Source: a virus
Lineage: Duplodnaviria; Caudoviricetes
DNA: 64,000 bases
IMG/VR virus record: IMGVR_UViG_3300021255_004000
Span: 32,001 to 96,000 of that record
Reading direction: 5' to 3' (one strand)
Part shown: positions 43,390 through 62,979 of the stretch, piece after piece
Layout of the letters: the number at the start of each line of letters is the position of its first letter
Numbering within the stretch: the first letter of the stretch is position 1
The notes under the pieces: generated by a model
Seen by the model: only the letters and a program-made list of their open reading frames with translations
Databases searched by the model: none
Told to the model about the DNA's origin: nothing
Program-made: the position numbers and the translations under genes

Positions 43390-43503
43390 GGCCTGTTGTA
43401 AATAGTGCAAGATTTTCAGTCTCGTGTGTCACCGTTTCACCTCATCAGGAAACCCTGATGGTGGGAGTCGAACCCACTTACGATAATAGGAACAACTTTT
43501 GCC
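43390..43503 (-). ncRNA. Y-like stem RNA copy 1 with circularly permuted tRNA-Phe(GAA)
   Basis: Order T-arm, acceptor hairpin, D-arm, anticodon arm inside the conserved stem. Confidence 0.8.
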
Positions 43504-43510
43504 TTATGAA

Positions 43511-43584
43511 AGCATCATATCGGATTCGAACCGACCCCTACTGCTTGGAGGGCAGTCGTGCTGAGCCGCTAACACTAATGATGC
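43511..43584 (-). tRNA. tRNA-Gly(TCC), C33
   Basis: Loop CCTCCAA; U73. Confidence 0.85.
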
Positions 43585-43597
43585 ATATTAAAGTTTT

Positions 43598-43671
43598 TGG
43601 GACCTCGAGGATTTGAACCCCGCACCCAGACATTATGAGTGTCGCGCTCTGACCCAATGAGCTAAGATCCC
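43598..43671 (-). tRNA. tRNA-CAT (probably Ile2, possibly Met)
   Basis: Loop CTCATAA; GGG acceptor. Confidence 0.8.
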
Positions 43672-43674
43672 ATA

Positions 43675-44050
43675 AAGATTACACAGTACTAAGAATCTGT
43701 ATCGAACGTCGTACTCGGCGGGATCCTTTTCACTGATGAAGTTGAGTGGCTACTGTGTATCACCATTGATATGACCTGCCGTGGGACACGGGCTTCATCA
43801 TCCTTTGAGCAGCAGTTTTGAGTGACGAGTTCAAAACTTTATTGCCTCTAAGTGCCGCAGGTTCTGTCAGTTGTTTGAGAAGGACAGCGTATGTTAGACG
43901 CTTCCTTAATTATTGTACACTTGGTACAACAATCTCTCGTGTTTCCCTTGTCTTTCAAATCAGGCGCAAGTAAGAAACAAAGCGTTATGGAACCACACAT
44001 AATTCACATCATTTGTTGAACTCATAACCCTAGAAATGCCAAAATCCCTA
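43675..44050 (-). ncRNA. Candidate large structured ncRNA (~370 nt)
   Basis: No credible ORF; many hairpins; TGTTAATATA motif just upstream. Confidence 0.45.
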
Positions 44051-44074
44051 TGTTTTTATATTAACATATTCAAG

Positions 44075-44147
44075 TCAGCCACCTGGGATTTGAACCCAGA
44101 ACCTAAGGATTAAGAGTCCCTCGCGCTAACCGTTGCGCCAGTGGCCG
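44075..44147 (-). tRNA. tRNA-Lys(CTT)
   Basis: Loop CTCTTAA. Confidence 0.9.
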
Positions 44148-44152
44148 ATAAG

Positions 44153-44223
44153 TGAGCGATACGGGAGTTGAACCCGTCTCAGCAGATTAAAAGTCTGCGG
44201 CAAAACCGATTTGCTAATCGCCC
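44153..44223 (-). tRNA. tRNA-Lys(TTT)
   Basis: Loop CTTTTAA. Confidence 0.85.
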
Positions 44224-44233
44224 GTAAATTGTT

Positions 44234-44306
44234 TGAGCTTGATGGGAATCGAACCCACGACCCACAGATTAAAAGTCTGTTGCTCTACCTATTGAGCTAC
44301 AAGCCC
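44234..44306 (-). tRNA. tRNA-Lys(TTT)
   Basis: Loop CTTTTAA. Confidence 0.95.
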
Positions 44307-44400
44307 ATAAGATACTCAAACAATTTAACAGGCTTTGTCTAAGGCAGCAATTACTGCTGCCACTTCCGCATTTCCTCTCATAATCATAATTTACTCCTTG

Positions 44401-44473
44401 AGATGAGGATGGGACTCGAACCCACCTGTAACAGTTTTGCAGACTGCTGCCTCACCAATTTGGCTACCTCATC
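44401..44473 (-). tRNA. tRNA-Cys(GCA)
   Basis: Loop CTGCAAA, U73. Confidence 0.9.
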
Positions 44474-44484
44474 ATAATTTTATT

Positions 44485-44556
44485 TACCGCGTGAAGGAGT
44501 TGAACCTTCCTAAGCCGTCTTGTAAGGGCGGTGCACAACCGATGTACCAACGCGGT
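44485..44556 (-). tRNA. tRNA-Val(TAC)
   Basis: Loop CTTACAA. Confidence 0.85.
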
Positions 44557-44566
44557 ATAAAGTTGA

Positions 44567-44649
44567 CGGAAGCGACAGGAATCGAACCTGCGACCTTTTT
44601 AGGGGAGACTGTTTTCAAGACAGTTTGATGCGCCAACCAACTCGCTTCC
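44567..44649 (-). tRNA. tRNA-Ser(TGA)
   Basis: Loop CTTGAAA, long variable arm, G73. Confidence 0.85.
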
Positions 44650-44657
44650 AAATGTAG

Positions 44658-44730
44658 GGTGCCCATCGGGATTCGAACCCGACCCTGAAGATCCACAATC
44701 TGCCGTGCTAACCGCTAACACTATGGGTAC
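44658..44730 (-). tRNA. tRNA-His(GTG)
   Basis: Loop TTGTGGA, C73; no encoded G-1. Confidence 0.85.
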
Positions 44731-44732
44731 AT

Positions 44733-44805
44733 TGCTGAAGGCAGGATTCGGACCTGCTACATCTGCCTTATGAGGGCAGCGTTCAACCGTATGAACTTCT
44801 TCAAC
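44733..44805 (-). tRNA. tRNA-Met(CAT)
   Basis: Loop CTCATAA; T-loop TCCGAAT. Confidence 0.8.
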
Positions 44806-44812
44806 ATAATAG

Positions 44813-44883
44813 CCCAAACTCAGGGATTTGAACCCCGGCTAGATGATCTTCAGTCACCTGTGCTACCGCTACACCAAGTTTGG
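44813..44883 (-). tRNA. tRNA-Phe(GAA)
   Basis: Loop CTGAAGA; atypical G37 and G73. Confidence 0.75.
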
Positions 44884-44888
44884 ATATC

Positions 44889-44962
44889 TGTGGCATCGGG
44901 GATTCGAACCCCGAAAATTTGCGTTCTTAGCGCAACAAGTATGCCAGTTCCATCAATGCCAC
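44889..44962 (-). tRNA. tRNA-Leu(AAG), short variable loop
   Basis: Loop CTAAGAA; Leu-type D arm, 5-nt variable region. Confidence 0.8.
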
Positions 44963-45570
44963 AAAAGTGTATTAGTTCGTTCATCGTATCTAATAAAGAT
45001 ACAATGAAGTCTACTTTTAATGTAGTCCTCTCTGGCTTTATCTTTCATCTTTCCTTTAACAGAATTGTGATAGCCTTTCTTTTCATCATATTCAAAAGCA
45101 ATGTTCAATTCTTTGTCATAGCCATCAAGGTGATATGGTCCAACACAAACTTCTCCGCCATTCATAGCGTGTTGTAAATGCCAACCATATTTTGCGTTCA
45201 GCTCATCAATGAACTTACAAGCATTTTCATTATAATTGCAATAGTTACCAAGATTGTGTCTTTTCCGCATCATCTCAGCAAGTTTTGCTCTTGTTTCAGG
45301 CGTATGAGTGTGGCCTTTCTTAATCTCACGATTAGGATTCAGTCCACAGTATCTCATATGTTGTGTTTTTGACTCCTTATTATTGAAGATTCTTCCGCAA
45401 AAGTCACAAAAACAAGTTTCTTTTCTATGAAGAGACCTTCCCAAGGAGTCAAGTCCTTGTTCTAATCTTTTTTCACAAGTTTTCTTATGTTCAAAATAGT
45501 TTCTTCTACCTTGAACAACACAACCACAATATTCACATTTCCAATTTTGAGCGTTTTTGTATGTTTTCAT
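44953..45570 (-). CDS. Homing-type endonuclease (Zn fingers, NUMOD3-like, Vsr/PD-(D/E)xK)
   Basis: CEYC, CDFC, HTPETRAKL, LDGYD...FEYDE; 3' end overlaps tRNA-Leu. Confidence 0.75.
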   Translation of the reverse strand: MKTYKNAQNWKCEYCGCVVQGRRNYFEHKKTCEKRLEQGLDSLGRSLHRKETCFCDFCGRIFNNKESKTQHMRYCGLNPNREIKKGHTHTPETRAKLAEMMRKRHNLGNYCNYNENACKFIDELNAKYGWHLQHAMNGGEVCVGPYHLDGYDKELNIAFEYDEKKGYHNSVKGKMKDKAREDYIKSRLHCIFIRYDERTNTLLWH

Positions 45571-45622
45571 ATCAATTAGTAAAGATTGGAAGACACACTT
45601 AACATCTCAAACCCATATTAAC

Positions 45623-45692
45623 AAAAAAGGCAACTCCTAAGAGCCGCCTTGAAAGATTTGTAAACTGTTTCTGCTTACAACTTCAAGGCTCT
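45623..45692 (-). promoter_or_regulatory. Attenuator 3: antiterminator/terminator
   Basis: Terminator AAGGCGGCTC-ttag-GAGTTGCCTT-TTTT; its 5' arm can instead pair with GCCTTGAAG spanning the leader stop. Confidence 0.8.
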
Positions 45693-45811
45693 AATACGAA
45701 ATGTTTTCCAAAGAGAGAACGAAGGACCATCTTCGAACACATACCGCATCCCAATACGAAACTAACAAATGAGGAATGTTTAACTATGTTCGACATCTTT
45801 GAAAAATTCAT
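45683..45811 (-). CDS. Leader peptide 3 (42 aa) MNFSKMSNIVKHSSFVSFVLGCGMCSKMVLRSLFGKHFVLEP
   Basis: AAGGA RBS; composition matches downstream tRNAs. Confidence 0.8.
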   Translation of the reverse strand: MNFSKMSNIVKHSSFVSFVLGCGMCSKMVLRSLFGKHFVLEP

Positions 45812-45893
45812 ATTCGTCAATCCTTAGCTATCAGGTTGCTACCCAAAATGTTTTTTCTTATTGAATAGTTAGTAAACAATTCAATAAAGTAAG

Positions 45894-45966
45894 TGGACCT
45901 ACCGAGCATCGAACTCGGACCTCAGGATTGCAGATCCCGTATGCCAGCCATTAACACCTTAAGCCC
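45894..45966 (-). tRNA. tRNA-Ala(TGC), C33
   Basis: Loop TCTGCAA; G3:U70. Confidence 0.85.
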
Positions 45967-45971
45967 ATAAA

Positions 45972-46092
45972 AATCTTCTGTTTATCCGCGAAGGTTGTTA
46001 CCAACTCTTCTTTCCTCTTGGAGGAACTGCTTTGTTTATTCTCCCGCTCCCGCATAACGCGTCGGTGTTGCGTTAGGAATTCACAGAAGATT
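45972..46092 (-). ncRNA. Candidate structured small RNA
   Basis: 10-bp closing stem AATCTTCTGT/ACAGAAGATT with internal hairpins. Confidence 0.45.
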
Positions 46093-46094
46093 AG

Positions 46095-46167
46095 TGGACC
46101 GTAGGGGAGTCGAACCCCTCTTTCCAGCGTGCAAAGCTGGAGTACTAAGCCGATATACGAACAGCCC
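46095..46167 (-). tRNA. tRNA-Ala(TGC)
   Basis: Loop TTTGCAC; G3:U70. Confidence 0.9.
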
Positions 46168-46174
46168 AAAATTA

Positions 46175-46260
46175 AAAGCGGGTTGTAAAAATTTCGCCGC
46201 AATGACGAAATATTGGAGTCGAACCAATAATTTCCGTTTAATAGGAACAACCTTTGCTTT
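46175..46260 (-). ncRNA. Y-like stem RNA copy 2 (T-arm plus acceptor-like hairpin)
   Basis: AGC-AAA-GGTTGT-TCCTA...ATTGG-TTCGACT-CCAAT...ACAACC-C-GCT. Confidence 0.75.
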
Positions 46261-46261
46261 A

Positions 46262-46333
46262 TTCCTCTGCTAGGATTCGAACCCAGAACAACTGATCCAG
46301 AGTCAGCAGTGTTACCAATTACACCACAGAGAA
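46262..46333 (-). tRNA. tRNA-Gln(CTG)
   Basis: Loop CTCTGGA. Confidence 0.9.
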
Positions 46334-46334
46334 G

Positions 46335-46406
46335 TCGGACGAGAAGGAGTTGAACCTTCGAAATCTCGGTCCCAGGCCGAGTGACATACCGCTTGCCGAC
46401 CGTCCG
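46335..46406 (-). tRNA. tRNA-Pro(TGG), C33
   Basis: Loop CCTGGGA; C1:G72, A73. Confidence 0.85.
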
Positions 46407-46414
46407 AAAATGAA

Positions 46415-46486
46415 AGCACCTGAAGGGAGTTGAACCCTCGCCTCAGCCTTGGCAAGGCCGCGTACTAGCCGTTATACTACAAGTAC
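46415..46486 (-). tRNA. tRNA-Gly(GCC)
   Basis: Loop TTGCCAA. Confidence 0.9.
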
Positions 46487-46495
46487 ATAAAATAT

Positions 46496-46570
46496 TGGGG
46501 TGGGTGGAATTGAACCACCGTGTAACCAACTAACCTTTCTGCGGTTTATCAGACCGAGGGTATACACCCC
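46496..46570 (-). tRNA. D-armless tRNA-Ile(GAT)-like RNA
   Basis: Acceptor GGGGTG/CACCCC, CGGT-CTGATAA-ACCG, long variable region, canonical T arm, no D stem. Confidence 0.6.
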
Positions 46571-46587
46571 ATTGTGTTTCAAGTTTT

Positions 46588-46660
46588 CAGGTGCGGAGAG
46601 ATTCGAACTCCCACCGACGGACTTGGAAACCGTAATGCTAAACCTTTACACCACGCACCT
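46588..46660 (-). tRNA. tRNA-Trp(CCA)
   Basis: Loop TTCCAAG; A1:U72, G73. Confidence 0.8.
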
Positions 46661-46668
46661 ATAAATCA

Positions 46669-46721
46669 TTAAAGGCTCAACTTTTAGTTGAGCCTGTAAA
46701 ATCCAAATTTTACTAGGCTCA
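46669..46721 (-). promoter_or_regulatory. Attenuator 2: antiterminator/terminator
   Basis: TGAGCCT-a-GTAAAAT-ttgg-ATTTTAC-AGGCTCA competes with AGGCTCAAC-taaaa-GTTGAGCCT. Confidence 0.8.
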
Positions 46722-46853
46722 CTTGATCTGCCACTGTCCTGAAATTGGGGCAATAGCTGCAACTGGTGCAAAGCCGGCGAAAGAAACTGGAAGACTAATG
46801 TGGCCGGCAAGTTTTACTGACTTAACTGATTTACAAACCATCATTGCTTTCAT
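46719..46853 (-). CDS. Leader peptide 2 (44 aa) MKAMMVCKSVKSVKLAGHISLPVSFAGFAPVAAIAPISGQWQIK
   Basis: AGGAG/AAGGA RBS, TGTTAATATA motif upstream; stop TGA begins the antiterminator arm. Confidence 0.8.
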   Translation of the reverse strand: MKAMMVCKSVKSVKLAGHISLPVSFAGFAPVAAIAPISGQWQIK

Positions 46854-46958
46854 ATTGTCCTTTCTCCTATAATTTTATATTAACAACTTTTCAGAAGTTT
46901 CTGAAAAATTATTTTCAATATTTAGTTAGTACAGTTGCAAAAACTGTAAGAGTTTTAA

Positions 46959-47040
46959 TCGGCCAGGAGAGACTCGAACTCTCAATCCACACGGCGTCCG
47001 ACCTTAATTCGGATGTGTATACCAATTCCACCACTGACCG
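46959..47040 (-). tRNA. tRNA-Leu(TAA)
   Basis: Loop ATTAAGG, long variable arm. Confidence 0.85.
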
Positions 47041-47047
47041 AACAAAA

Positions 47048-47230
47048 TTAACTATCCTTTAAGTATGCAACAGTTTTTCCATTTTCAAACATTTCTTGTT
47101 GAAGTTTGGAAATCTTGTTGTAAAGATCTTGGCAAATGCCTTTTGATCTTCCACTTAAATGGAAGCGTGCCATATGTCCTAGCACGAATGCAAGTTCTTG
47201 CAATCTCTCGTTATCGAGTTTGATTGTCAT
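47048..47230 (-). CDS. Small hypothetical protein
   Basis: AAGGAG RBS before MTIKLD. Confidence 0.55.
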   Translation of the reverse strand: MTIKLDNERLQELAFVLGHMARFHLSGRSKGICQDLYNKISKLQQEMFENGKTVAYLKDS

Positions 47231-47275
47231 ATAGACTCCTTGCACCACCAATTTTTTAATGAAATTGGAAACATT

Positions 47276-47342
47276 GGCGAGCTGTAGCAAATATACATTA
47301 ACAGTGTATTGCCTCATCGGCGTAATAGGAACAACTTATGCC
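47276..47342 (-). ncRNA. Y-like stem RNA copy 3 displaying an Asn(GTT) anticodon stem-loop
   Basis: GGC-ATA-AGTTGT-TCCTA...ATACA-CTGTTAA-TGTAT...ACAGCT-C-GCC. Confidence 0.75.
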
Positions 47343-47351
47343 TAACATGTG

Positions 47352-47433
47352 TGGCCGCAGGAAGTTTTGCCATCTCTTCGTCCCCCGACTTACAAGGTCG
47401 GTGCTCTTAGGGCAGTCTGAGCTACATTTGGCC
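47352..47433 (-). pseudogene. Aberrant tRNA-Thr(TGT)-like element
   Basis: D arm and CCGAC-CTTGTAA-GTCGG intact; T loop and acceptor non-canonical. Confidence 0.5.
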
Positions 47434-47434
47434 T

Positions 47435-47740
47435 TTGCTGCATCATAAAAAGACAACGCAGCGAAATCCGAAGTTTTTCTTTCAGTTGCCACAACCAAGT
47501 ATTTTTCAACCCACGTCTCATTAAGACAACCTACACTGGAGCTTTTGGTAAAACTTTCTACCCATATTCATCATACGGTAACCATTGTAAAGGCCTTTAT
47601 GCTTGTTCCGCCAGGCTCCCCGCTGACCAAGCTGATGTCTCGGTAATTTTTCATACCAGCCTCACCTTGGGCTCATACTTCCTTTCCCCAAGTACTCTTA
47701 GGTTTTCACGCGACCTAAACTATCCCACGAGTTTGAAAGA
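47435..47740 (-). ncRNA. Candidate large structured ncRNA (~300 nt)
   Basis: GC-richer than coding DNA, many hairpins, no credible ORF. Confidence 0.4.
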
Positions 47741-47751
47741 GTTTGCTTTCT

Positions 47752-48054
47752 CTAGTAATAACACCACCATTTGATACGACAAGTTTCACTGTCGAAGCAT
47801 TCAGTAAGAATGTTATCAATTTCCTCTTCCGTTGTATCAATATTAACAGATTTCAGTCTGCTTCTGATAAGTCCACGAGAATCTTTTTTCTTCTCGGAAC
47901 GGTCTCCTTTCATCGCACGGCGAGCGTAACGATCACAAGGATTTCCCCAACGGAACCAGAATCTTCGAGCTTCCTGTGTACCGCGTCTTGCGGTATATTC
48001 ACCGTAGCTGAAGTTTGCCTTATAAAAGGCGCTCTCGCAATAATCATTTAACAT
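47752..48054 (-). CDS. Small basic hypothetical protein
   Basis: AGGAG RBS; 100 aa. Confidence 0.6.
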   Translation of the reverse strand: MLNDYCESAFYKANFSYGEYTARRGTQEARRFWFRWGNPCDRYARRAMKGDRSEKKKDSRGLIRSRLKSVNIDTTEEEIDNILTECFDSETCRIKWWCYY

Positions 48055-48251
48055 CTAGTGTATCTCCTACACTATCCGTAAGTCATACGCGATCCTCCTA
48101 TTATAGCATCATCGTTCACAGGATCGAACTGCAACCGTACAGACCTTTAGAGCCTATCCGTTTTACCCCACACAGGGCGATGTTGCTTATGGTTGAACGA
48201 GATGGCAACAACATTACTTGTACACCAACGTCATCTGCTATAAAACTAAGA

Positions 48252-48333
48252 TGGGCCAAAGGAGAGTCGAACTCCTAATCCTTTCGGCGACTGCTTTTGA
48301 GGCAGTTGCGTATACCAGTTCCGCCATTAGCCC
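48252..48333 (-). tRNA. tRNA-Leu(CAA)
   Basis: Loop CTCAAAA, long variable arm. Confidence 0.9.
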
Positions 48334-48339
48334 AAATGA

Positions 48340-48412
48340 TTGCGGGAGGTGGACTCGAACCACCGACCTTCGGGTTATGGGCCCGATAAGCTGCCAACTG
48401 CTCTATCCCGCG
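48340..48412 (-). tRNA. tRNA-fMet(CAT), C33
   Basis: C1:A72 mismatch, GGG/CCC anticodon stem, loop CCCATAA. Confidence 0.9.
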
Positions 48413-48427
48413 ATGTAACATGTGTTT

Positions 48428-48503
48428 TGACGCTGACAGGACTCGAACCTGCGACACCGAGCTTAGAAGGCTCGTGTTCTTATTCCAGCTGAACTACAGC
48501 GCC
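48428..48503 (-). tRNA. tRNA-Arg(TCT)
   Basis: Loop CTTCTAA. Confidence 0.9.
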
Positions 48504-48685
48504 ATATTGAAAGTACTTTATACGTCGGACCAGTCCGTTCAGCTTTCGCCTAGGGAGTTTCGAGGCTCCCACCTACGCATATCAACTTTCTGTGTGCTTT
48601 TCGGGCTTCTTCTACTAAGCACTTAAACTTTCAGTTCTGCTAGAAACCAAAGTTCTTGACGTTCTCTCTAGCAATGAGAACCGTA

Positions 48686-48760
48686 TAGCTGTTGCAGGAG
48701 TCGAACCTGCTATCGTAAAGGATATGAGCCTCACATATTGAACCGTTCTACCCAACAGCG
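48686..48760 (-). tRNA. tRNA-Met(CAT)-like, initiator-like variant
   Basis: Loop CTCATAT; 1:72 mismatch; weak D stem. Confidence 0.65.
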
Positions 48761-48767
48761 ACGTACA

Positions 48768-48891
48768 AAAAGACGAGTTGTATTATTCGTGCTCTAACCG
48801 CTGAGCTATCCGCCCACGAACGAGCGGAGTTGGATTCGAACCAACGACCCCGTGCTTAAAAGGCAACAAATAGGAACAACTTATGTCTTTT
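48768..48891 (-). ncRNA. Y-like stem RNA copy 4 with circularly permuted tRNA-Lys(TTT)
   Basis: TGC-CTTTTAA-GCACG, T arm, acceptor hairpin, D arm, then CG, all inside the conserved stem. Confidence 0.85.
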
Positions 48892-48893
48892 AG

Positions 48894-48966
48894 CGGTGTA
48901 TGCGGGAATCGAACCCGCCATCTCCTGCGTGACAGGCAGGCGAAATAGCCGATATTCAAATACACC
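48894..48966 (-). tRNA. tRNA-Asp(GTC)
   Basis: Loop CTGTCAC, G73. Confidence 0.9.
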
Positions 48967-49175
48967 AAATAAACAAACCACCTTCCAAACGGAACGCCCG
49001 ATACTTGATCTTAATGTCCGCACTTATCCAAGAGTTTCATTTCGCGCGAGAAACTCTCGGGGGTTAGGGAGCTACAGGTGCCTAGGCTTACTACGATTAA
49101 GCCAACAAATGCGAGCTCGTCTCACAAAGGTTTGTACTTTTTGCCAACTTCTGTCTAGAATGAAGTTGAAAGTAG

Positions 49176-49263
49176 TGGGCCGAGAGGGAGTCGAACCCCC
49201 GATGTTTGCCGTAAAGGTGACGGATTTACAGTCCGCTGACTTCGCCACTGGTCACACCGACCC
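49176..49263 (-). tRNA. tRNA-Tyr(GTA)
   Basis: Loop CTGTAAA, long variable arm. Confidence 0.9.
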
Positions 49264-49329
49264 ATAAAATTGATGGCCGTGCTCATCACACATTTACAAC
49301 ATCGTTTCGAGCAATGTTACCATCAAGTA

Positions 49330-49402
49330 AGCTACTTGTAGGACTTGAACCCACAACATCCTGATTACAGGTCAGGCGCTCTACCATTGGAGCTAAAGTA
49401 GC
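49330..49402 (-). tRNA. tRNA-Thr(TGT), C33
   Basis: Loop CCTGTAA; G1:C72, C2:G71. Confidence 0.85.
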
Positions 49403-49558
49403 ACAATAAAAGATAAATTACATTTTTTCTTTCCATACATCTTTCATTCTAATTTGTCCGCGGTCACTGAACGAAGAAGATGGTTGTATTAGATGTTCTA
49501 TAACTTTTCGGGGCCTTAAGCCCGTATTGAGTGTTTCAACATCAGTCTCTTATCTTTA

Positions 49559-49631
49559 AGCCGCCTGAGGGATTTGAACCCACAACATCCGCATTACAGG
49601 TGCGGCGCTCTACCATTGGAGCTAAGGAGGC
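49559..49631 (-). tRNA. tRNA-Thr(TGT), C33
   Basis: Loop CCTGTAA; paralogue of 49330-49402. Confidence 0.85.
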
Positions 49632-49634
49632 ATA

Positions 49635-49706
49635 CAGTTCCGAAAGGAGTCGAACCTTCGTTCTCTGGATGAAAACCAGATGGCCTAGCCGTTAGCCGAC
49701 GGAACC
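49635..49706 (-). tRNA. tRNA-Glu(TTC)
   Basis: Loop TTTTCAT. Confidence 0.9.
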
Positions 49707-49787
49707 AAAAACTGTGAACTACTTCTAAGACTGGACGGAAGTATAGCAGCTCGTTCAAAAGATATATTGACTTTCAAACTTTTGTCT

Positions 49788-49872
49788 CGTATCAGGCAGG
49801 GCTCGAACCTGCGATGGGCTTTCGCTCGGCAGATTAACAGTCTGCTGTCTTCGACCACTCGACCACTGATAC
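49788..49872 (-). tRNA. tRNA-Asn(GTT) with long variable arm
   Basis: Loop CTGTTAA, G73, class-II-like body. Confidence 0.85.
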
Positions 49873-49879
49873 ATATTTA

Positions 49880-50431
49880 TTATGTTAAAAAGATTTTTAC
49901 TTCTTCTATAAAGATTTTAGGATTATTGAAAATATCTTTCCAAGATTTTCTCAATTCTTTCCATCCTTCTTCATTCAGAAGTTTATCTTTCTGAACATCT
50001 CTTTCTTTTTGCTCTTGAAATCTTTCGTGTTGTTCACCATCAATTTCAACGCAAAGTTTTTTGTCAGGCCAAGCAAAGTCCAAAGAAAACCTATGAAAAG
50101 GAACTTCTCTGTAATAATCTTTATCAATTTCTTGACCAAATTCATTTCTCATCATTGTAATAAACCACTCCTCAGGATATGAAGGTTTATTATTCCAACG
50201 ACAATCTCCAATGTTATGAGCTCGACCTTCAGCGTGAGCTTTTTTCATCGAAGCAGAAATCTTTTGTCTAACATCATCCGACATTGTATGTCCGCAATGA
50301 TCCTTCAACTTCTGTCTTGTTTCTTCTGACAAAACAGGTTTTTCTTTTCCAAGAGCTTTAGCCTTAGTATATTGATTTGTACCGTGGCCTTTTCTTGCGT
50401 GCATTGCATCGTACCATTTTTGACTTTTCAT
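49880..50431 (-). CDS. Homing-type endonuclease (NUMOD3-like plus Vsr/DUF559-like)
   Basis: SEETRQKL, SDDVRQKIS repeats; LDFAW...VEIDGEQH...D..L...GW. Confidence 0.8.
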   Translation of the reverse strand: MKSQKWYDAMHARKGHGTNQYTKAKALGKEKPVLSEETRQKLKDHCGHTMSDDVRQKISASMKKAHAEGRAHNIGDCRWNNKPSYPEEWFITMMRNEFGQEIDKDYYREVPFHRFSLDFAWPDKKLCVEIDGEQHERFQEQKERDVQKDKLLNEEGWKELRKSWKDIFNNPKIFIEEVKIFLT

Positions 50432-50519
50432 ATCAATTAGTACGGTCCTCCGCTCTACATGTGTCCCTATCGTCGGAACCTATTGTCAACATCTTATCGT
50501 CGGTCCCTATTGTCGGTAG

Positions 50520-50593
50520 CGGGATATGCGAGCATCGAACTCGCGACCTCTAGCGTGACAGGCTAGCGTGGTAGCCAACTCCACCAATACCCC
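50520..50593 (-). tRNA. tRNA-Asp(GTC)
   Basis: Loop CTGTCAC. Confidence 0.9.
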
Positions 50594-50807
50594 AAAATTG
50601 TAGGTATAAGAAACCTTTTGCAAGGAAAGGAATTACCCGTATGCCTTTTACCAGCCAACAACTTGTTCAGTAGTTCCATTTCTGTTATCTGACCAATAGT
50701 GTTTCTACTGGCTCTGACAAGTTATCAACCAAGGATTCGAACCTTCCACCGAACGATACCACGAGGTGGCAGCAACCAAGCTGTTATTTTATTCCGTTTA
50801 ACGTTCT

Positions 50808-50880
50808 TAGATCTTGCGGGGATCGAACCCACTCCTCCACCTTGAAAGGGTGGCGACTCAACCTTTTTGTCCTAAGATCC
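50808..50880 (-). tRNA. tRNA-Glu(TTC)
   Basis: Loop CTTTCAA. Confidence 0.85.
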
Positions 50881-50935
50881 ATATTTGAAGTTTCCTTCTT
50901 TTGTTGTAAACCTTTTGTATCGGTTTTACAGAAAT

Positions 50936-50964
50936 AATATAAAAGAAGTTTTTTCAAAGTTCAA
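50936..50964 (-). promoter_or_regulatory. Early-type promoter TTGAAC-N17-TATATT upstream of tRNA block 1
   Basis: Conserved repeat. Confidence 0.8.
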
Positions 50965-50999
50965 AAATTTTTATTTTTTTGCAATTTTTGTTATAAAAC

Positions 51000-51061
51000 A
51001 AAAAAGGCAAACCTTCATCGGTTTGCCTCAGGGAAACATTTCTCAGTTCTCTAAGGCAACC
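51000..51061 (-). promoter_or_regulatory. Attenuator 1: antiterminator/terminator
   Basis: Terminator AGGCAAACC-gatgaa-GGTTTGCCT followed by a T tract; GGTTGCCTTAG (leader end and stop) pairs with CTGAGGCAAACC. Confidence 0.8.
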
Positions 51062-51173
51062 TTGTATCTTCATTATAATCGTATTCATCTGTAGTGATAG
51101 CAGTTCTAACATCATTATTCAATAATGATCTTGTTGTGAGAACTTCTGCTGTCAATGAATACAATGAAGTCAT
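51051..51173 (-). CDS. Leader peptide 1 (40 aa) MTSLYSLTAEVLTTRSLLNNDVRTAITTDEYDYNEDTRLP
   Basis: AAGGAAGG RBS, ACTAAT motif upstream; composition matches downstream tRNAs. Confidence 0.8.
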   Translation of the reverse strand: MTSLYSLTAEVLTTRSLLNNDVRTAITTDEYDYNEDTRLP

Positions 51174-51267
51174 TTTTAATAGCCCTTCCTTAATATATTT
51201 CAATTAGTACAACCCTTAAAAATGTAAGAGTTGTAATTTGTTCCTCGTATATTTATATTAACAGATT

Positions 51268-51867
51268 TTAGTCTTCTGCTGTAGGAATTTCAATTCCAAA
51301 CAGTTTTGATAACTTATCTTTCCAATTAAGGAAATCATCGTTATGGCCGCCATCTGCATAATAAGTTACACCGTCATAAATCTTATCATAATTTGATAAG
51401 AAAGCTTTACAGAACTCTTCGTTCTCAGGATCGCCATCGCTGGCAGTATCATAAAGCTCGTCAATAAGTGTATCAAGCTTCTCAATGCAGTTTGCTGCTG
51501 CTTCATAGTTTGTCCAAACTCTTGAGAGAATTTGGAATAAACTTATCAACTTCATAAACTTATGCTTCAAAGCATCTGTTTTGATTACATCATACATATC
51601 AGAAAGTTCGCCGCCTACAATAACTGGGACGCCATTCAATCTTTCAAATGCGTGACATAATTCGTGTGCAACATATTTAGGCAAGTCCTCTTTGGAAACT
51701 TTTTTCCAAACAGAAATACTCTTTTCTGAAATGTTGTACTTTGCTTTCATTCCTGTGTAGTCAAAGTCGACAACATTTATAGAAACACTTGGACACGGAA
51801 TACCTGCATCCTCAAGCTTATCAAGCAAATTGTCTAAACACGCCTGTGCATCTTCTTGTTTAATCAT
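51268..51867 (-). CDS. Zincin-like (HExxH) protein
   Basis: VAHELCH; AGGAG RBS. Confidence 0.6.
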   Translation of the reverse strand: MIKQEDAQACLDNLLDKLEDAGIPCPSVSINVVDFDYTGMKAKYNISEKSISVWKKVSKEDLPKYVAHELCHAFERLNGVPVIVGGELSDMYDVIKTDALKHKFMKLISLFQILSRVWTNYEAAANCIEKLDTLIDELYDTASDGDPENEEFCKAFLSNYDKIYDGVTYYADGGHNDDFLNWKDKLSKLFGIEIPTAED

Positions 51868-52035
51868 AAACGGTACTCCTAATATTTAGTTATAGGAGAA
51901 AGAGTTCTCGCCGGTTTTAATTTCTCAAACTACAGCCCCGCTACCTGCATTCGATTTTTGCAAGCCATACGAGTAGCATCACTGCTGCGAGGTTGATGGG
52001 ACTTTCACCCATAGTGACGTTTAACGAACTCCTAA

Positions 52036-52124
52036 TTCGGAAGGCGGGATTCGAACCTGCACGACGCTGATATGCGTCACCAGAATCAAAGTCTGGGGAG
52101 ATACCAATTACTCTTTACTTCCGA
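52036..52124 (-). tRNA. tRNA-Gln(TTG) with long variable arm
   Basis: Loop CTTTGAT; GACGC-atatca-GCGTC extra arm. Confidence 0.7.
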
Positions 52125-52244
52125 GTAAAATAGTTTTCTCACTCTTGTTTGCAACGCGACGCAAGATTCCAATAGGTGGACATATCCGATATTCCTATTA
52201 TACGGAAGGCCCTTAAGCGCATCTACTGCCGCGAGAAAACTATA

Positions 52245-52576: not shown

Positions 52577-52706
52577 CTTTGACGGTATCAACTTCATCCT
52601 GCGTCGTCATATACAGGCCTTTACCATCCGGTGCTTCCAGCGGTTGAGTATAACTCCTCATATTTCCCGTTCTCTGTGTAGCCATCTACGTTGAAGTTGT
52701 CAAATA

Positions 52707-52779: not shown

Positions 52780-52784
52780 AAAAA

Positions 52785-56719: not shown

Positions 56720-56897
56720 TTGTCACCTCAATTCCCAAATGTTTTAACATCAAGCGGCAGCCCCAAGAAAATGTTTTGAAACGAGATGGATCCATCTGAT
56801 GTTCTTTTTGATAATCTTTTTCCCATTTCTCACCTTCTCCTGTCCAAAGGTCACAGACAAGATTTTGAAAATCTGCAACATTCATTTTCTCAGGCAT
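56712..56897 (-). CDS. Hypothetical protein
   Basis: Start MPEKMN after AAGGAG. Confidence 0.5.
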   Translation of the reverse strand: MPEKMNVADFQNLVCDLWTGEGEKWEKDYQKEHQMDPSRFKTFSWGCRLMLKHLGIEVTND

Positions 56898-57918
56898 TCT
56901 TTTTCTCCTTAAGTAATGGACATTTGTCACCACATACATTGCAAGTTTCCTGAATATCCATTGCCCCGAAAAGATTTATGTGAGCAGAACATTGTGTTCT
57001 TTGTTTTTCTTTCTTTGCGATAATCGGATCTTCTTCCTCGTGAGCTTCCCACCAATCATTTGCAATTCCATTCACAAGTTTTGCAACTCGCCATTTCTGA
57101 CACTCATCTTCAACATCTTCAACGGTTGGCATCTTGATATGTTCACTGCGGGAAAGCATACACTCTGTTGAAATATCAAAACCTTCTTTCAGTGCAAGTG
57201 TGTAACCAATGATTGCGTTCAATTCATCATAACCATTTACAGCATCAGTAAGCAGAGGACCCATTGCACAAATGCGTCTTGTTCCTAAAATGTATTTGTA
57301 AATTGGAAACTCAGAAATTGGGACATGCCCGAATGCTTCGATTTGATAGTCAAGAATTGTTGCATCACTGAACTTATCATAAAAGTCGCAAGCAACTCTC
57401 AATTCATCGATTGTAAGTTTATTTGCTTTTTCACAAGCGCCCGGGCGAAGAGATGTACCCAAAAAGATTGTGTGTACGCCGCAGTCATATGCATAAAGAA
57501 CAAGTTCACTGAAGTTTTTGTAAAATGGATTTTCCCACTGATCATCTTTTTCAATTTGTTCACGAAGGAACTGACCACCGCGGGAATTGATAACATATCC
57601 GCTTCTTTCTGCTTCACGAATAAGATAAGCAGGTGTAATATGAAAAGTCATTGCTTTTACACCATAAGACGCCTGCCGTTTGATTGTATCTTTGATGTCT
57701 TCTTCAAAAAGAATACTTTCATAAATCGGCGCAGAACAAAGAATGACATTTTTGCCAACTTTGTCCCGAACGGATTCCCAAAGAGCTTTCACTCTTGGTT
57801 TGTCAACTGAAATAACACTGACATAATCGATGTTGTACTTGGAAGCGAGCTCGAGTTTTTTCAACTCATCTGTAAATGATTGCTCGGGATATGACAACCC
57901 AATGTTTAATTTAAGCAT
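56890..57918 (-). CDS. ThiC-like non-canonical radical-SAM protein
   Basis: SRGG, LRPG, GHVP, GPLLTD...GYD, EHIKMP, C-terminal CNVCGDKCP. Confidence 0.75.
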   Translation of the reverse strand: MLKLNIGLSYPEQSFTDELKKLELASKYNIDYVSVISVDKPRVKALWESVRDKVGKNVILCSAPIYESILFEEDIKDTIKRQASYGVKAMTFHITPAYLIREAERSGYVINSRGGQFLREQIEKDDQWENPFYKNFSELVLYAYDCGVHTIFLGTSLRPGACEKANKLTIDELRVACDFYDKFSDATILDYQIEAFGHVPISEFPIYKYILGTRRICAMGPLLTDAVNGYDELNAIIGYTLALKEGFDISTECMLSRSEHIKMPTVEDVEDECQKWRVAKLVNGIANDWWEAHEEEDPIIAKKEKQRTQCSAHINLFGAMDIQETCNVCGDKCPLLKEKKNA

Positions 57919-58276: not shown

Positions 58277-59512
58277 TCACTCCTCAGTACCATCAGTCAT
58301 CTGCATACCCATAAGGTGCAAAGTATCACGGTACAGTGTTCTTGAGTTTTTACCCTTTTCAATGAAAGCATCAAAAAGTTCATCAGCTTTCTTTCCATAA
58401 AGTTGTTTGAACAAAGCAGCATCTTCTGGAAAATCTTCATTCACTGAAGTGTAGAACTCTTTCTTATCTGCATACTTTGCTGCGATTACTGTGTTGACAT
58501 ATTCAACTTTTTCTTCAAGCCATTTACGGTACAGCTGAACATTGTGAGAGATTTCCTCAACACGAGCTTTTACTTTTGGATCAGCAGCGCAAAGGTCATC
58601 AACTTCATTCATACAGTAATATTTGAACAAGCGGTTGTCACCGAAGTCTTCGCCTCTTGACTCAAACTTTACGCGAATGTAATCATCGATTTTGACTTTT
58701 ACACGGTTGAAATATTTATCACATACAACAACGCCTTCACCGTTATCTTTTACATTCCAACCTGCAAGTACATCAAGCATTTCCTTTGCGGATTTGAAGT
58801 TGTACATCTTTGGAGTTTCAAAAGGAAAATGGAATCTTTCTTTTGCTTCAGTGAAAGTTATTTCATCGCCACTTGGCATACGGAAACCAATAAGCCAAAG
58901 TTTTGCATCTTTTACCAAGTCAGTGTGAATTCTGTTCCAAGGTGACTCCAGTTCAAACATTGCTGTTGAACCTTCAGGCATTCTTTTTGCCCATTCACAA
59001 TCAGAGAAAAGGAAACCATCTGAGAAGAAAGCTGATGAAACGTCATTCTTTAATGCCCGCAAAAGAACATCAGACATATTGTTCAATCTTGGCAAGCCTG
59101 GGACATAATCAACAGGAGCGCCTTTCTCATTCTCAGTAATCACACGACCGTTTGACATCCAATAAACATTGCCGTGCCATTTGAACGCTTTGAAAATCCA
59201 GCCGTCACGCTTGTGGGAAACCCAAGCAGAATCCCAGTCAATGTCAGCAGCAACGCCTTCATCTTTGTAATTCCAAAACTTTGTGAATGGAGCACAGATG
59301 ATTTCACCTGTAGTTTTGTCAATTACAGTACCACGACACTGACACATTATATCAAAGATTTCCTTGTCATCAGGCATATCCATAAGATTGTACATAAGTA
59401 CAACCCAGTTGCGGCCTTCAACAGGATAAATGGATTTCATATTTGGTCTGAGGATTTCTTCCCAATTTGGATTTGATTTTACGAAGTTTTCAAGTTTCTC
59501 AAAGTGTTTCAT
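58277..59512 (-). CDS. T4 Rnl1-type RNA ligase
   Basis: CRG...PFTKFWN, HKRDG (motif I), FELESPWNRI, EGVVV, RVKVK. Confidence 0.85.
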   Translation of the reverse strand: MKHFEKLENFVKSNPNWEEILRPNMKSIYPVEGRNWVVLMYNLMDMPDDKEIFDIMCQCRGTVIDKTTGEIICAPFTKFWNYKDEGVAADIDWDSAWVSHKRDGWIFKAFKWHGNVYWMSNGRVITENEKGAPVDYVPGLPRLNNMSDVLLRALKNDVSSAFFSDGFLFSDCEWAKRMPEGSTAMFELESPWNRIHTDLVKDAKLWLIGFRMPSGDEITFTEAKERFHFPFETPKMYNFKSAKEMLDVLAGWNVKDNGEGVVVCDKYFNRVKVKIDDYIRVKFESRGEDFGDNRLFKYYCMNEVDDLCAADPKVKARVEEISHNVQLYRKWLEEKVEYVNTVIAAKYADKKEFYTSVNEDFPEDAALFKQLYGKKADELFDAFIEKGKNSRTLYRDTLHLMGMQMTDGTEE

Positions 59513-59888: not shown

Positions 59889-59905
59889 CATTTTGACATT
59901 TTCTG

Positions 59906-60115
59906 TCAATCTGTCAACCATTTCTTTTTTGCCCATTTTTTGCCTTCTTCTATTGAGTTGACAATTTTTGTGTCAATTAAGTTTGCGCCGCCCATAACCC
60001 ATACTTCATATTTAGGACTGTTCTTTCTTTGACAAATTGAAATAATAAAGCCATCATCTTCTTCCCAATACCAAGCTTTCAACTTTTTATCATATTCCCA
60101 CATATCTTTTCCCAT
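59906..60115 (-). CDS. Small hypothetical protein
   Basis: 69-aa ORF. Confidence 0.5.
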   Translation of the reverse strand: MGKDMWEYDKKLKAWYWEEDDGFIISICQRKNSPKYEVWVMGGANLIDTKIVNSIEEGKKWAKKKWLTD

Positions 60116-60164
60116 AAAAAAACCCGAGAATTAAATCTCGGGTTCTCGATCTATTTACTGTCAA

Positions 60165-62066
60165 TTACTCAACAAGTTTAATAAGGTCGTTTTTGCTCAT
60201 CTGAGTAAGGTCAATGTCAGGCTCATCTTCAACAAACTCAAAACCTGCGGCAGCAAGTAAGTCGTTCAACTTGATGTAGCTGTTTGCTTTTACCTTGCCC
60301 TGTGCTTCAATAATTTTCATCATTGAAACAGAAGGCACTCGTGCAGCACCAGCTTCCATATCTGACATAAAGATTTTGCCATCTTCAATTTTTGCAACAA
60401 CCTTTTGACCATAAGTATCGTGCTGAAGTTCTGCTTCAAACACAATCTTGTTTGGGTCAACCATCGCGTCTTTAGCGCTATATCTGCGGTTCATTCTGTC
60501 CATATTTGCTTTGTCTGGGTCAACAGCAACGAAAAGTTTGAACTTTGAATGCTCATCTCCTGAGAACTTGTTGATTGAAATTACACCATCAGGAGCGCCC
60601 TTTCCGATGTAAATACATTCGGCAGCTTCAGGATTTGCGCTTGTCATATCACCAGAGTAGATGATCTTGCCATACTTACCACCGTGATAGTCGCCGTTCC
60701 AACCATAATGCTGGCCTGTCTTGCTGACATAATGAAGGTCATAGTCTCTTACGCCCCATTCATCACGCCAGTAAATGCCGAATACATTGTCCTTCTCTGC
60801 GAGAGGAATTGCAGTACCCATAGGATAGTTGCCAACAAAGTTCTTTTCAGAAGTTGGAATTGTCAACTCAAGACCCTTAGGAAGTTTGATTCTTGTTGGT
60901 CTTTCGAGAACAACATCATTTCCTTCAGCATCTTTTGTTGTAACCTTTGTGATGGCTTTCTTTGCCAAGTTGTTGATGTATGAGTCCTTAAGGATTGCAT
61001 ACAACTCAGCAAGGTACTTTTCATCACAAGAAGCCTGATAACCTTCGCGAACGAAAGTCTTTCCGTTTCTGATTACAAACATACGGCCTTTAACATCCTG
61101 ACCGTTCACGCGTTCCATAATGCCCTGCATAAGCTGACCTTTCTTGAAGGCAGTCAAAGAATCAACTTTTTCTGCTGCTTCTTTAAGATAAGCGTCCTGC
61201 TGACCTTCAGGATTGAAACATCTTTCCCAGAAACCAATCTTCATTGGCTTGTGGTTCTTAACAGCCAACTTACGAATGTGGTTGATTGTTGTATGTGTTT
61301 CAGCGCATTTCATTGCAAGAATAAGCGGCTTGTAACGATAGAAGATAGTTGACAGAGCAACATCTCTTTCGCTCAAGATCTTGTTCAAGTCTTTCTTCTG
61401 CTTTGCAGGCAATGCAGCAACCAAGCTTTTGATACGAGCGATTGACTCTCTTGACTTAACAAGCATTGCTGTGTCCTGTGTCAAAAGATACATAACAACA
61501 CGCAATACTGAAATTGGCTGCTTAGGGTATGCGCCCATCTGAACAGCGAAGATAGCCTGAGCTTCTTTGTTTGCAATTTCATCAACATCAACTTTGTTCA
61601 AGAAGTCATAATCTTTGATGTAGTCCATCAAAAGCTGAAGTGTCTTTTCGTTGATTGCAATGCCTGACTTCAACATTCCGTAGCACTCTTCGAAGATTTC
61701 ATCTTCTGTTGCAGGAAGAATGACTTTGTACTTTTTGTACTCGATTACAGGCGGTTCATCGTTCGGAACATAGCCGTTGCCTTCCTGAGTATGGCCTGTA
61801 CCATAAGTTGAAGCATAATGCATCCACTGGTCAAAAGCGAGCTCGAGGCGATCCTTTGATACAACATCTTCAAATGTTTTGTAGAAAGTTGAGTTTGGAT
61901 TGTAAGTCTCATTCTCGAGAAACTTTACAATTTCTTTGCTTCCGCAGCAATCTGGGTGGACAAGGTAACCTGCCTTCATAGCCTTTTCGTTTACTGCTTT
62001 GAATGTTGCAAGGTCACAAGTACAAGAAGGAGCTTTGTTAAAAAGCTGAATAAGTTTCCAGTTCAT
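60165..62066 (-). CDS. ROT/TROVE-like helical protein with C-terminal TerD-like domain
   Basis: N-terminal NSTFYK...DQWMHYASTYG, helical middle, TerD-like FGIYW...DYDLH...YSGDMTSA...AAECIYI. Confidence 0.6.
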   Translation of the reverse strand: MNWKLIQLFNKAPSCTCDLATFKAVNEKAMKAGYLVHPDCCGSKEIVKFLENETYNPNSTFYKTFEDVVSKDRLELAFDQWMHYASTYGTGHTQEGNGYVPNDEPPVIEYKKYKVILPATEDEIFEECYGMLKSGIAINEKTLQLLMDYIKDYDFLNKVDVDEIANKEAQAIFAVQMGAYPKQPISVLRVVMYLLTQDTAMLVKSRESIARIKSLVAALPAKQKKDLNKILSERDVALSTIFYRYKPLILAMKCAETHTTINHIRKLAVKNHKPMKIGFWERCFNPEGQQDAYLKEAAEKVDSLTAFKKGQLMQGIMERVNGQDVKGRMFVIRNGKTFVREGYQASCDEKYLAELYAILKDSYINNLAKKAITKVTTKDAEGNDVVLERPTRIKLPKGLELTIPTSEKNFVGNYPMGTAIPLAEKDNVFGIYWRDEWGVRDYDLHYVSKTGQHYGWNGDYHGGKYGKIIYSGDMTSANPEAAECIYIGKGAPDGVISINKFSGDEHSKFKLFVAVDPDKANMDRMNRRYSAKDAMVDPNKIVFEAELQHDTYGQKVVAKIEDGKIFMSDMEAGAARVPSVSMMKIIEAQGKVKANSYIKLNDLLAAAGFEFVEDEPDIDLTQMSKNDLIKLVE

Positions 62067-62089
62067 TTAAGAACCTCTTAAAAAGTAAC

Positions 62090-62145
62090 AGGCGGGTTGT
62101 AATTTGAAAAACTTTCATATTCCTTGTTAGGAACAACCGTTGCCT
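62090..62145 (-). ncRNA. Y-like stem copy 5, in the 5' region of the ROT-TerD gene
   Basis: GGC-AAC-GGTTGT-TCCTA...ACAACC-C-GCC ending 24 nt before ATG. Confidence 0.75.
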
Positions 62146-62152
62146 TAAATAG

Positions 62153-62420
62153 TGGAATGGGAAGGAGTCGAACCTCCCTAGACAATACATTACTGTACCG
62201 TCTTAATTTCGTGCAGCATCTGATTACTGATGTGAGGTCTTTGCAGTCTTACCTATCAGCCTTTCATAGCAACACCCGACCCTTAGCTTGCTTTCAGTGG
62301 CCTGCATACCCCCTAATAACAAACCCAATCGGAATGCCCAAAGTCTTACTCTGGATTCCACTTTTAGCTAGAAGATACTTGTTCGCGGCCAACGAACTTC
62401 TCTCTAGTCCCGTTCACTCC
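62153..62420 (-). ncRNA. ~270-nt RNA with tRNA-like 3' end (tmRNA-like layout)
   Basis: GGAGG-TTCGACT-CCTTC T arm and CCATTCCA end; possible 5' GGAGTG partner. Confidence 0.45.
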
Positions 62421-62757
62421 ATAATATTTTTGCGTTTCCCCAACTTCCAACCTGAACAGTCTCTAACTGTTCAACTTTGAAAGGAGCAGTGGCCGAACCA
62501 ACTCTGGAAACAACAAGTTCAAAGTTTTTGTATTTTGTTTTAAGACTTTTTGTTATAAGCTTTTTTACATTGTTGTAAAGTTTCTGATTGTAGTCATTCT
62601 TTCTGCCTTTGTTAAGCATTGTGTAATGAACAACAGCAGTTTTCTCTTTTGAAAGGTCTGGGATTCTCAAGTCAGGTCGTTTCCCGGGCTTAAGTTCAAC
62701 ACCGTAGATTTCGCCGTTATAATTGCAGCTTACAACCCAATGATTCTGTAGAATCAT
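62404..62757 (-). CDS. Hypothetical protein
   Basis: GGAGG RBS before MILQ. Confidence 0.55.
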   Translation of the reverse strand: MILQNHWVVSCNYNGEIYGVELKPGKRPDLRIPDLSKEKTAVVHYTMLNKGRKNDYNQKLYNNVKKLITKSLKTKYKNFELVVSRVGSATAPFKVEQLETVQVGSWGNAKILWSERD

Positions 62758-62785
62758 AAAAACCTCCAAAAGATAATGTTTAGCA

Positions 62786-62916
62786 GAGCGGGAATTATTG
62801 AAACCCGTCCTCGGCGGCTTCTCCCCAGCTAGGGAAAGTGTAGCAATCCACTCGCATCCTAAGATGCCCTAGCACTGAAGTATAATTTGCGTTAAGATAG
62901 GAACATTCCTATGCTC
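62786..62916 (-). ncRNA. Y-like stem RNA copy 6 with multibranch cargo
   Basis: GAGC-ATA-GGAAT-GT-TCCTA...ATTCC-C-GCTC. Confidence 0.65.
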
Positions 62917-62927
62917 AGTAAACATGG

Positions 62928-62979
62928 TCGGCGAGAAGTAAAACAAATCCCGATTGTAAATAGGAACCTCTTATGCCGA
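62928..62979 (-). ncRNA. Y-like stem RNA copy 7 (minimal)
   Basis: CGGC-ATA-AGAGGT-TCCTA...ACTTCT-C-GCCG with compensatory changes. Confidence 0.7.

Follow-up and report, generated by a model that had tools for sequence, protein, structure and literature searches.

Why would a large rumen phage repeat one small bulged stem seven times, partly within its tRNA genes and partly around the gene for a protein from a large, uncharacterised family? The question is raised by a 64,000-nucleotide (nt) stretch of viral DNA (IMG/VR record IMGVR_UViG_3300021255_004000, positions 32,001 to 96,000), referred to here as the window, in whose coordinates all positions are given. The original prediction, made from the sequence alone, placed seven copies of the stem on the minus strand and took them for Y RNA-like ligands of a 633-amino-acid (aa) protein encoded at 60165–62066, also on the minus strand. 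All seven copies are present at these sites and on this strand. The stem, here called the handle, belongs to a structured, strand-specific RNA family that covaries and is absent from Rfam; it is tightly linked to the family of the 633-aa protein, whether one starts from the gene or from the motif; and it carries interchangeable tRNA-like modules. The best overall explanation, which we hold with moderate confidence, is that the helical-TerD protein binds the bulged stem and its UCCU(A) as an RNA handle.

A covarying RNA handle

The handle consists of a helix of 3–5 base pairs (bp), an internal loop with A-W-A facing a single C, a 6-bp helix ending in GU/AC, and an unpaired UCCU(A). In the consensus of 156 distinct copies, the lower helix ends in C-G, UCCU(A)U follows the upper helix, and a U stands just before the returning AC. 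Family-wide, the base after UCCU varies, being mostly A, with U, C and G also occurring; in the window copies UCCUA is invariant, as had been predicted. Their bulges read AUA, AAA or AAC and face a C in six copies but a G in the one at 43390, whose handle also has an A-A mismatch. Pairing is complete in five of the seven. A strict descriptor matches the window five times, where dinucleotide shuffles yield 0.05 matches each; since it was derived from the window copies themselves, support is taken from replication outside the window instead.

Covariation was measured in 89 copies that had been picked without regard to pairing. Their six variable pairs reach 95% pairing, against a shuffle maximum of 62%, and show all four Watson-Crick types. 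At these pairs G-U occurs 22 times and A-C twice, an excess that fits an RNA of the sense strand. When IMG/VR was scanned with a pattern that made no demand for pairing, 159 of the 162 matches were paired at all five positions checked, two of which the pattern restricted to purine-pyrimidine. The handle stem matches no Rfam family at gathering or E-value thresholds, and no description of the motif was found in the published literature. (The covariance model, or CM, misses copies with long cargos, and its training set included two window copies, so its scores in the window are not used as proof.)

Could the motif be a site in DNA rather than an RNA? Small mobile elements can be marked by imperfect inverted repeats around a variable cargo, and an operator, a recombination site or a mobility end would each be conceivable. 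This idea, raised with the original prediction as a way in which it might fail, is contradicted by the tolerance of G-U and avoidance of A-C, by the occurrence of the handle almost only on the sense strand, and by cargos that are RNA folds. We regard it as extremely improbable.

Linkage to the gene for the 633-aa protein

Co-occurrence of motif and protein family had been proposed as a check, and the link is seen in both directions. From the gene side, a sense-strand handle lies within 1.5 kilobases (kb) at 141 of 184 homologue loci, representing 23 of 38 protein clusters (50% identity), as against 5 loci with an antisense match and 1–4 in shuffles. (Variant copies can be recognised at several of the handle-negative loci, either by eye or with a model.) From the motif side, in IMG/VR, the gene is found no more than 3 kb downstream on the same strand at 63 of 116 loci; the remaining loci lie mostly in tRNA arrays, either in genomes that have the gene elsewhere or in fragments. 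CM matches occur in 26 of the 30 virus records with the gene and in 14 of the 15 near-complete ones. The phages S-CRM01, S-CBWM1 and Phass-1, which were outside the CM training set, encode a homologue 24–30% identical to the protein and have 2–9 handle copies, some of them flanking the gene.

Neither the gene nor a CM match was found in T5, Bxz1, XacN1, S-PM2 or phage G, and the surroundings of 15 true TROVE genes, 25 stretches in all, were free of CM matches too. Likewise, 149 other Bacteroidales genomes had neither gene nor handle, although this is a weak test, with 37 candidates scored per genome. In phage LpeD, where the protein is a structural match only, there was no significant CM match, and this phage may use another RNA or none. 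Twenty-five motif-bearing virus records lack the gene; nearly all are fragments, but one 35-kb record rated 97% complete also lacks it. The gene–handle pair is also present on contigs of Bacteroidales, Fibrobacter and Selenomonadaceae genomes, which the original prediction had missed. One Bacteroidales group lies near ribosomal-protein-like genes and is thus probably chromosomal. No plasmid homologue of the protein was found.

Leader copies

A handle copy was found in 105 of 146 distinct upstream regions, in 95 of them within 60 nt of the start codon. These leader copies have a median distance of 23 nt to the start codon and a median cargo of 27 nt, and most gene-proximal copies are nearly empty. 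A U-rich tail follows 56 of the 105, the Bacteroidales genomes have a single copy with a terminator-like tail, and in one clade the stem geometry is kept while the lower helix runs into the AAGGAG ribosome-binding site. In the window, copy 3 (62091–62144, minus strand) has a short cargo and lies 24 nt upstream of the start codon of the 633-aa gene, making it a candidate autoregulatory site. The original prediction overlooked that the copies are mostly of this near-empty kind, in the gene's own leader and next to U-tracts or the ribosome-binding site. Their layout is that of a feedback operator and suggests autoregulation, which is probably the second, and the most widespread, use of the handle.

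Might regulation in cis be the main function altogether? The handle would then be an attenuator or translational operator, the distant copies would act as sponges or clamps, and the tRNA cargo would be a by-product of life in tRNA arrays. The many near-empty, gene-proximal copies and the lone terminator-tailed copy of the Bacteroidales speak for such a leader. On the other hand, it leaves unexplained why elbow and anticodon features of tRNA persist in the cargos, backed by compensatory changes, why these cargos are permuted at several distinct points, and why tandem arrays upstream of the gene hold up to ten copies with different cargos. For these reasons we think it quite unlikely that the handle is mainly a leader.

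A variant handle lacking CCUA stands just upstream of the gene at loci L004, L072, L075, L078, L080, L083 and L084. The clade with this variant offers a natural test of co-evolution between protein and RNA.

Cargos

The window copies, all on the minus strand, illustrate the range of what the handle can enclose. Copy 4 (48772–48887) is a circularly permuted tRNA-Lys(UUU) mimic in the order anticodon, T arm, acceptor hairpin, D arm, and copy 7 (43390–43503), the one with the divergent handle, is a circularly permuted tRNA-Phe(GAA) mimic in the order T arm, acceptor hairpin, D arm, anticodon. Permutation thus opens the two at different points, and when the cargos are re-joined, ARAGORN calls tRNA-Lys(UUU) and tRNA-Phe(GAA), respectively. 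Copy 5 (47276–47342) has a D-like hairpin and an Asn(GUU) anticodon arm, while copy 6 (46177–46258), between tRNA-Gln and tRNA-Ala, has a T arm and an acceptor-like hairpin. (ARAGORN also calls a tRNA-Arg(CCT) at 46204–46280, overlapping both tRNA-Gln and copy 6; Rfam does not support it, and it was set aside as probably a false call from the T-arm cargo.) Copies 4 to 7 are hosted by an array of about 35 tRNA genes (43212–52780, minus strand). Copy 1 (62930–62977) has a short, unstructured cargo of 21 nt; its CM score is 48.7 bits, but it is a member of the CM training set. Copy 2 (62786–62916), with a 5-bp upper helix, encloses a conserved multi-hairpin domain that includes an invariant 14-nt hairpin, GUGGAUUGCUACAC, and shows compensatory changes across four homologues; L065, L066 and L095 carry the domain, and the L065 orthologue has the canonical handle closure. 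The cargo diversity originally claimed holds, except that the cargo at 62786 is not tRNA-like.

Several cargo classes recur across the family: T-acceptor-D modules in YrlA order, with the anticodon arm in front, behind or missing; in-order tRNA bodies with the anticodon loop replaced; a T arm with a hairpin; a D arm with an anticodon arm; and non-tRNA domains. On Fibrobacter contigs, single permuted T-acceptor-D copies lie just downstream of the gene. The cargos contain 67 anticodon-arm shapes, compared with 15.6 in shuffles, Asn(GUU) being the commonest. (NNU anticodons are in excess, at 32 of 67 compared with 232 of 707 in tRNA genes, but the difference was judged too weak, given relatedness and chance arms.) Of the 79 copies that have a downstream tRNA, 41 end 3–13 nt before it, so that normal tRNA 5' processing would be expected to release them.

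Copies 3, 4, 5, 6 and 7 are covered by contigs from four ruminant gut metatranscriptome runs, derived from related strains, copy 3 together with the 633-aa gene. This coverage is compatible with transcription, but the contigs give no ends, strand or level, and DNA carry-over is possible. Among the RNA contigs listed, which show presence only, there was no circularising or splicing joint at any motif copy.

Are the permuted copies simply tRNA genes? The permuted tRNA genes of red algae and archaea have circularly permuted halves and a bulged helix at their termini, and the handle copies share both features. They differ in the geometry of the handle, in the linkers between stem and tRNA, and in a cargo that is mostly non-decoding; unlike with permuted tRNA genes, no splicing endonuclease was seen with the handle system. 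The handle could still be a processing signal similar to the archaeal bulge-helix-bulge, at which permuted tRNAs are cut, circularised by ligase and matured into working tRNAs. Two window cargos do re-join to complete cloverleaves; a T4 Rnl1-type RNA ligase (58277–59512) and a tRNA nucleotidyltransferase of the CCA-adding type with an HD domain (41161–42549), both on the minus strand, are encoded nearby; and RNase P cuts the YrlA RNA of M. smegmatis, which also acquires CCA (PMC4201824). However, the stem is parted from the tRNA by linkers of 5–10 nt and the 6-bp helix, so the motif is not placed to yield tRNA ends and cutting at the bulge would not give them. Most copies have nothing to mature, many cargos have no decoding loop, and normal Lys(UUU) and Phe(GAA) tRNA genes are already present in the window. 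A role in making functional tRNAs is consequently very unlikely.

The 633-aa protein

What kind of protein accompanies the handle? It has a helical N-terminal region (residues 1–372; 60951–62066, minus strand) followed by a TerD-fold domain (residues 421–590; 60297–60806, minus strand). The family is large: one search gave 1,157 homologues, and at 50% identity there are 1,249 clusters. The 633-aa protein has no sequence match in Pfam (neither to TerD nor to TROVE, PF05731), PHROG, NCBIfam or the PDB. Its predicted structure is confident (predicted local distance difference test, pLDDT, 87; predicted template-modelling score, pTM, 0.84), with a beta-rich C-terminal half. A TerD fold in this half is supported by the model: the top two VIA-align matches are 2qz7 (Z 9.4, root-mean-square deviation [rmsd] 3.1 over 136 residues) and 2kxt (Z 8.0). 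As in the TerD/TerE stress proteins, a beta-sandwich fold is combined with conserved acidic motifs; here, by contrast, the domain follows a 370-residue helical region and lies outside a ter operon. The positions D441, D443, S471-G472-D473 and E483, acidic residues among them, are near-invariant, and the domain may bind calcium. In the helical region, a conserved basic stretch at about residues 238–274 (R244, K246, N262 and H272) is the best candidate, on conservation, for an RNA-binding surface.

The TerD half of the original "ROT/TROVE-like-TerD" description was thus upheld, whereas homology to Ro could not be confirmed. Ro (1yvp) aligned to the full model over 269 residues spread along its whole length (Z 5.3, rmsd 5.0), the longest alignment listed but within the background for helical proteins. 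It was not among the listed structural matches of the N-terminal model or of a second search, although the folds may still agree. When a profile of 134 family members was compared by HHalign with one of 13 TROVE proteins from Bacteroidota, a shallow template, the probability was 0.11%, against 0.31% for the reversed control. The protein has no vWA domain, since residues 421–590 match TerD. (A Foldseek search of the PDB gave only long matches with template-modelling [TM] scores of about 0.1, including botulinum toxin complexes, which were dismissed as meaningless.)

The predicted fold does match the MXAN_6230/SCO0854 cluster over 583 residues (TM 0.70). These proteins (PF14447) are described in Pfam as RING proteins with ROT/TROVE-like repeats and a TerD domain, with a proposed role in RNA processing, which gives the "ROT/TROVE-like" label a pedigree. 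They differ from the 633-aa protein, which has no RING domain, and we know of no RNA partner for them. Structural relatives are also encoded by Campylobacter phages IBB35 and CP21 and by Lactobacillus phage LpeD (BFVD matches).

Relation to Ro60 and YrlA

How close is the handle system to the Ro60/YrlA particle? YrlA consists of a Ro-binding stem and a permuted tRNA domain, and its RNA gene adjoins the protein gene (PMC4201824, 10.1101/312249). As in Ro60 (Rsr) with YrlA and YrlB (RF02553), the two ends of the handle RNA pair to form a bulged stem whose 5' strand is conserved; the RNA genes adjoin the protein gene and share its strand, with an RNA ligase near some loci; and a permuted T-acceptor-D module is found in a subset of the copies (4, 7 and many homologues), though not in most. 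The differences are considerable. The GNCGAA motif is in none of the seven copies, and GUUCCU(A) is the consensus in the family; the original prediction had already noted a mismatch to the canonical Y RNA motif. Conservation extends to both strands of the stem, there are several permutation points, kept anticodon loops, in-order tRNA bodies and empty copies, and a genome may have up to ten handle RNAs. The partner protein has TerD in place of vWA and no detectable TROVE homology. The likeness of GUUCCUA to the vertebrate GGUCCGA, five of seven positions in another pairing register, is a lead only.

The proposed comparison with Rfam gave a partial match. RF02553 matches copy 4 over positions 24–84 of the Rfam model at 32 bits, and its best score elsewhere is 54 bits, both below the gathering threshold of 69 and mostly over the tRNA-like part only; the YrlA-like character of the permuted domains is borne out to this extent, while the handle itself has no Rfam family. 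The Ro60 of the Thermus phage phiLo, with its Yrl1 and Yrl2 RNAs, is similar in that a phage protein is accompanied by small stem-bulge RNAs upstream of its gene, but that protein is a true HEAT-vWA ring and its RNAs use CGAA (PMC12135203). A survey of jumbo phages mentions ROT/TROVE proteins with tRNA-like partners, but not this handle motif (PMC7824862). On these four grounds (GNCGAA, Rfam score, TROVE homology and vWA), the handle system falls outside Ro60/YrlA, whose organisation it shares.

The main rival to our reading, drawn by analogy, is a RYPER-like tether (PMC4201824, PMC12135203), in which the protein would bind the handle and the tRNA module would recruit PNPase or a repair enzyme such as a ligase, so that RNA decay or repair is redirected and no bait is involved. 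The permuted T-acceptor-D cargos, including the single Fibrobacter copies, do match the YrlA effector domain at up to that 54-bit score; an RNA ligase and a CCA-adding enzyme are encoded in the window; and the Thermus phage Ro60 with its Yrl RNAs binds host PNPase and slows it (PMC12135203). A tether fails to account for the variety of anticodon arms and for the cargos without an elbow, however, and a Ro-like ring is not established for the 633-aa protein. We consider this rival unlikely, though less so than a pure leader.

Proposed mechanism

Binding of the handle by the helical-TerD protein, which we favour, can be laid out in three steps. First, and very probably, the protein would bind the handle, probably through the conserved basic helices near residues 238–274. 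Second, the nearly empty leader copy would likely serve as a feedback operator that limits synthesis of the protein: binding would stabilise the terminator-like stem or block the ribosome-binding site, so that the level of protein would track the number of RNA sites. Third, in tRNA-rich phages, normal tRNA processing would cut the extra copies from the tRNA transcript, and the protein would clamp both ends of the released RNAs, whose tRNA elbows and anticodon arms might then be offered to tRNA-acting enzymes as stable baits or adaptors, host anticodon nucleases and tRNA-damage sensors being the most plausible targets. This third step as a whole, with the RNAs serving most plausibly as bait against tRNA-cutting defences, is a tentative suggestion, slightly more apt to fail than to hold. 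The TerD domain may add control by a metal or ligand.

Several observations weigh against this scheme. About a quarter of the homologue loci have no strict handle nearby; the loci are related, so the counts overstate the number of independent events; and a cis element or a third factor could underlie the linkage. The family as a whole has no conserved protein neighbour, and the RNA ligase adjoins a gene of the 633-aa type in one clade only (9 loci). The clade whose stem abuts AAGGAG has kept the stem and lost CCUA. In most copies there is no tRNA feature at all, and the anticodon loop has been lost from many of the tRNA-like cargos, a poor fit to bait for anticodon nucleases.

In its widest form, the proposal would be that of a second Y-RNA-type particle, built independently or very deeply diverged, in which a helical-TerD protein with its own handle uses cargo libraries, enlarged by phages into genome-encoded sets of exchangeable tRNA elbows and anticodon arms, to neutralise tRNA-targeting host defences and the handle doubles as feedback operator. 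We offer this as a speculative possibility. The handle in any case gives a large, uncharacterised protein family a candidate RNA ligand, and it is relevant to the presence of tRNA arrays in large phages and to their resistance against tRNA-cutting defences. What tRNA mimicry of the YrlA type does is an open question (10.1101/312249); because one handle comes with natural cargos that range from nothing to a whole permuted tRNA, cargo swaps can test what the mimics are for. Such tests are practical, since the cultured cyanophages S-CRM01 and S-CBWM1 carry the handle–gene pair.

Other features of the window

By its look, the window is part of a large phage, with its tRNA genes, GroEL, RNA ligase and CCA-adding enzyme. 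Its DNA is found in gut metagenomes, in many cases bovine or sheep, and a 295-kb contig carries a close homologue of the 633-aa protein. Beside the RNA ligase lies a ThiC-like radical SAM gene (56890–57918, E 5e-37). In several clades (L109, L012, L094, L372), the neighbours of the 633-aa-type gene are NAD- or ADP-ribose-related and phosphoesterase genes, encoding cytidylyltransferase-Nudix, PARG, calcineurin-like and nicotinamide phosphoribosyltransferase proteins.

The tRNA array holds further elements of interest. Two open reading frames (ORFs) sit inside it, one with DUF559/endonuclease matches (49880–50431) and one with weak zinc-finger matches only (44953–45570). Degenerate tRNA-like elements without a handle occur on the minus strand at 47350–47425, 52245–52420 and 50740–50790, and GC-richer long intergenic stretches at 43680–43980, 47430–47740 and 48060–48250, covered by RNA-library contigs, are candidates for structured RNAs.

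Between copies 2 and 3 lies a non-coding RNA candidate of about 270 nt (62148–62423, minus strand), for which there was no Rfam or tmRNA call. It has a T arm and an acceptor-like stem that joins its ends, with compensatory changes in locus L095, and an RNA-library contig connects 62423 back to 62152. Its 5' end is overlapped by the 3' end of a 121-aa ORF without a family match (62404–62769). A second candidate, of about 240 nt (52466–52705, minus strand), has a T arm at its end. Its ends are joined in contigs from two RNA runs. One of these joints has three additional letters, CCA when read on the minus strand, which suggests an RNA that is CCA-added or circularised.

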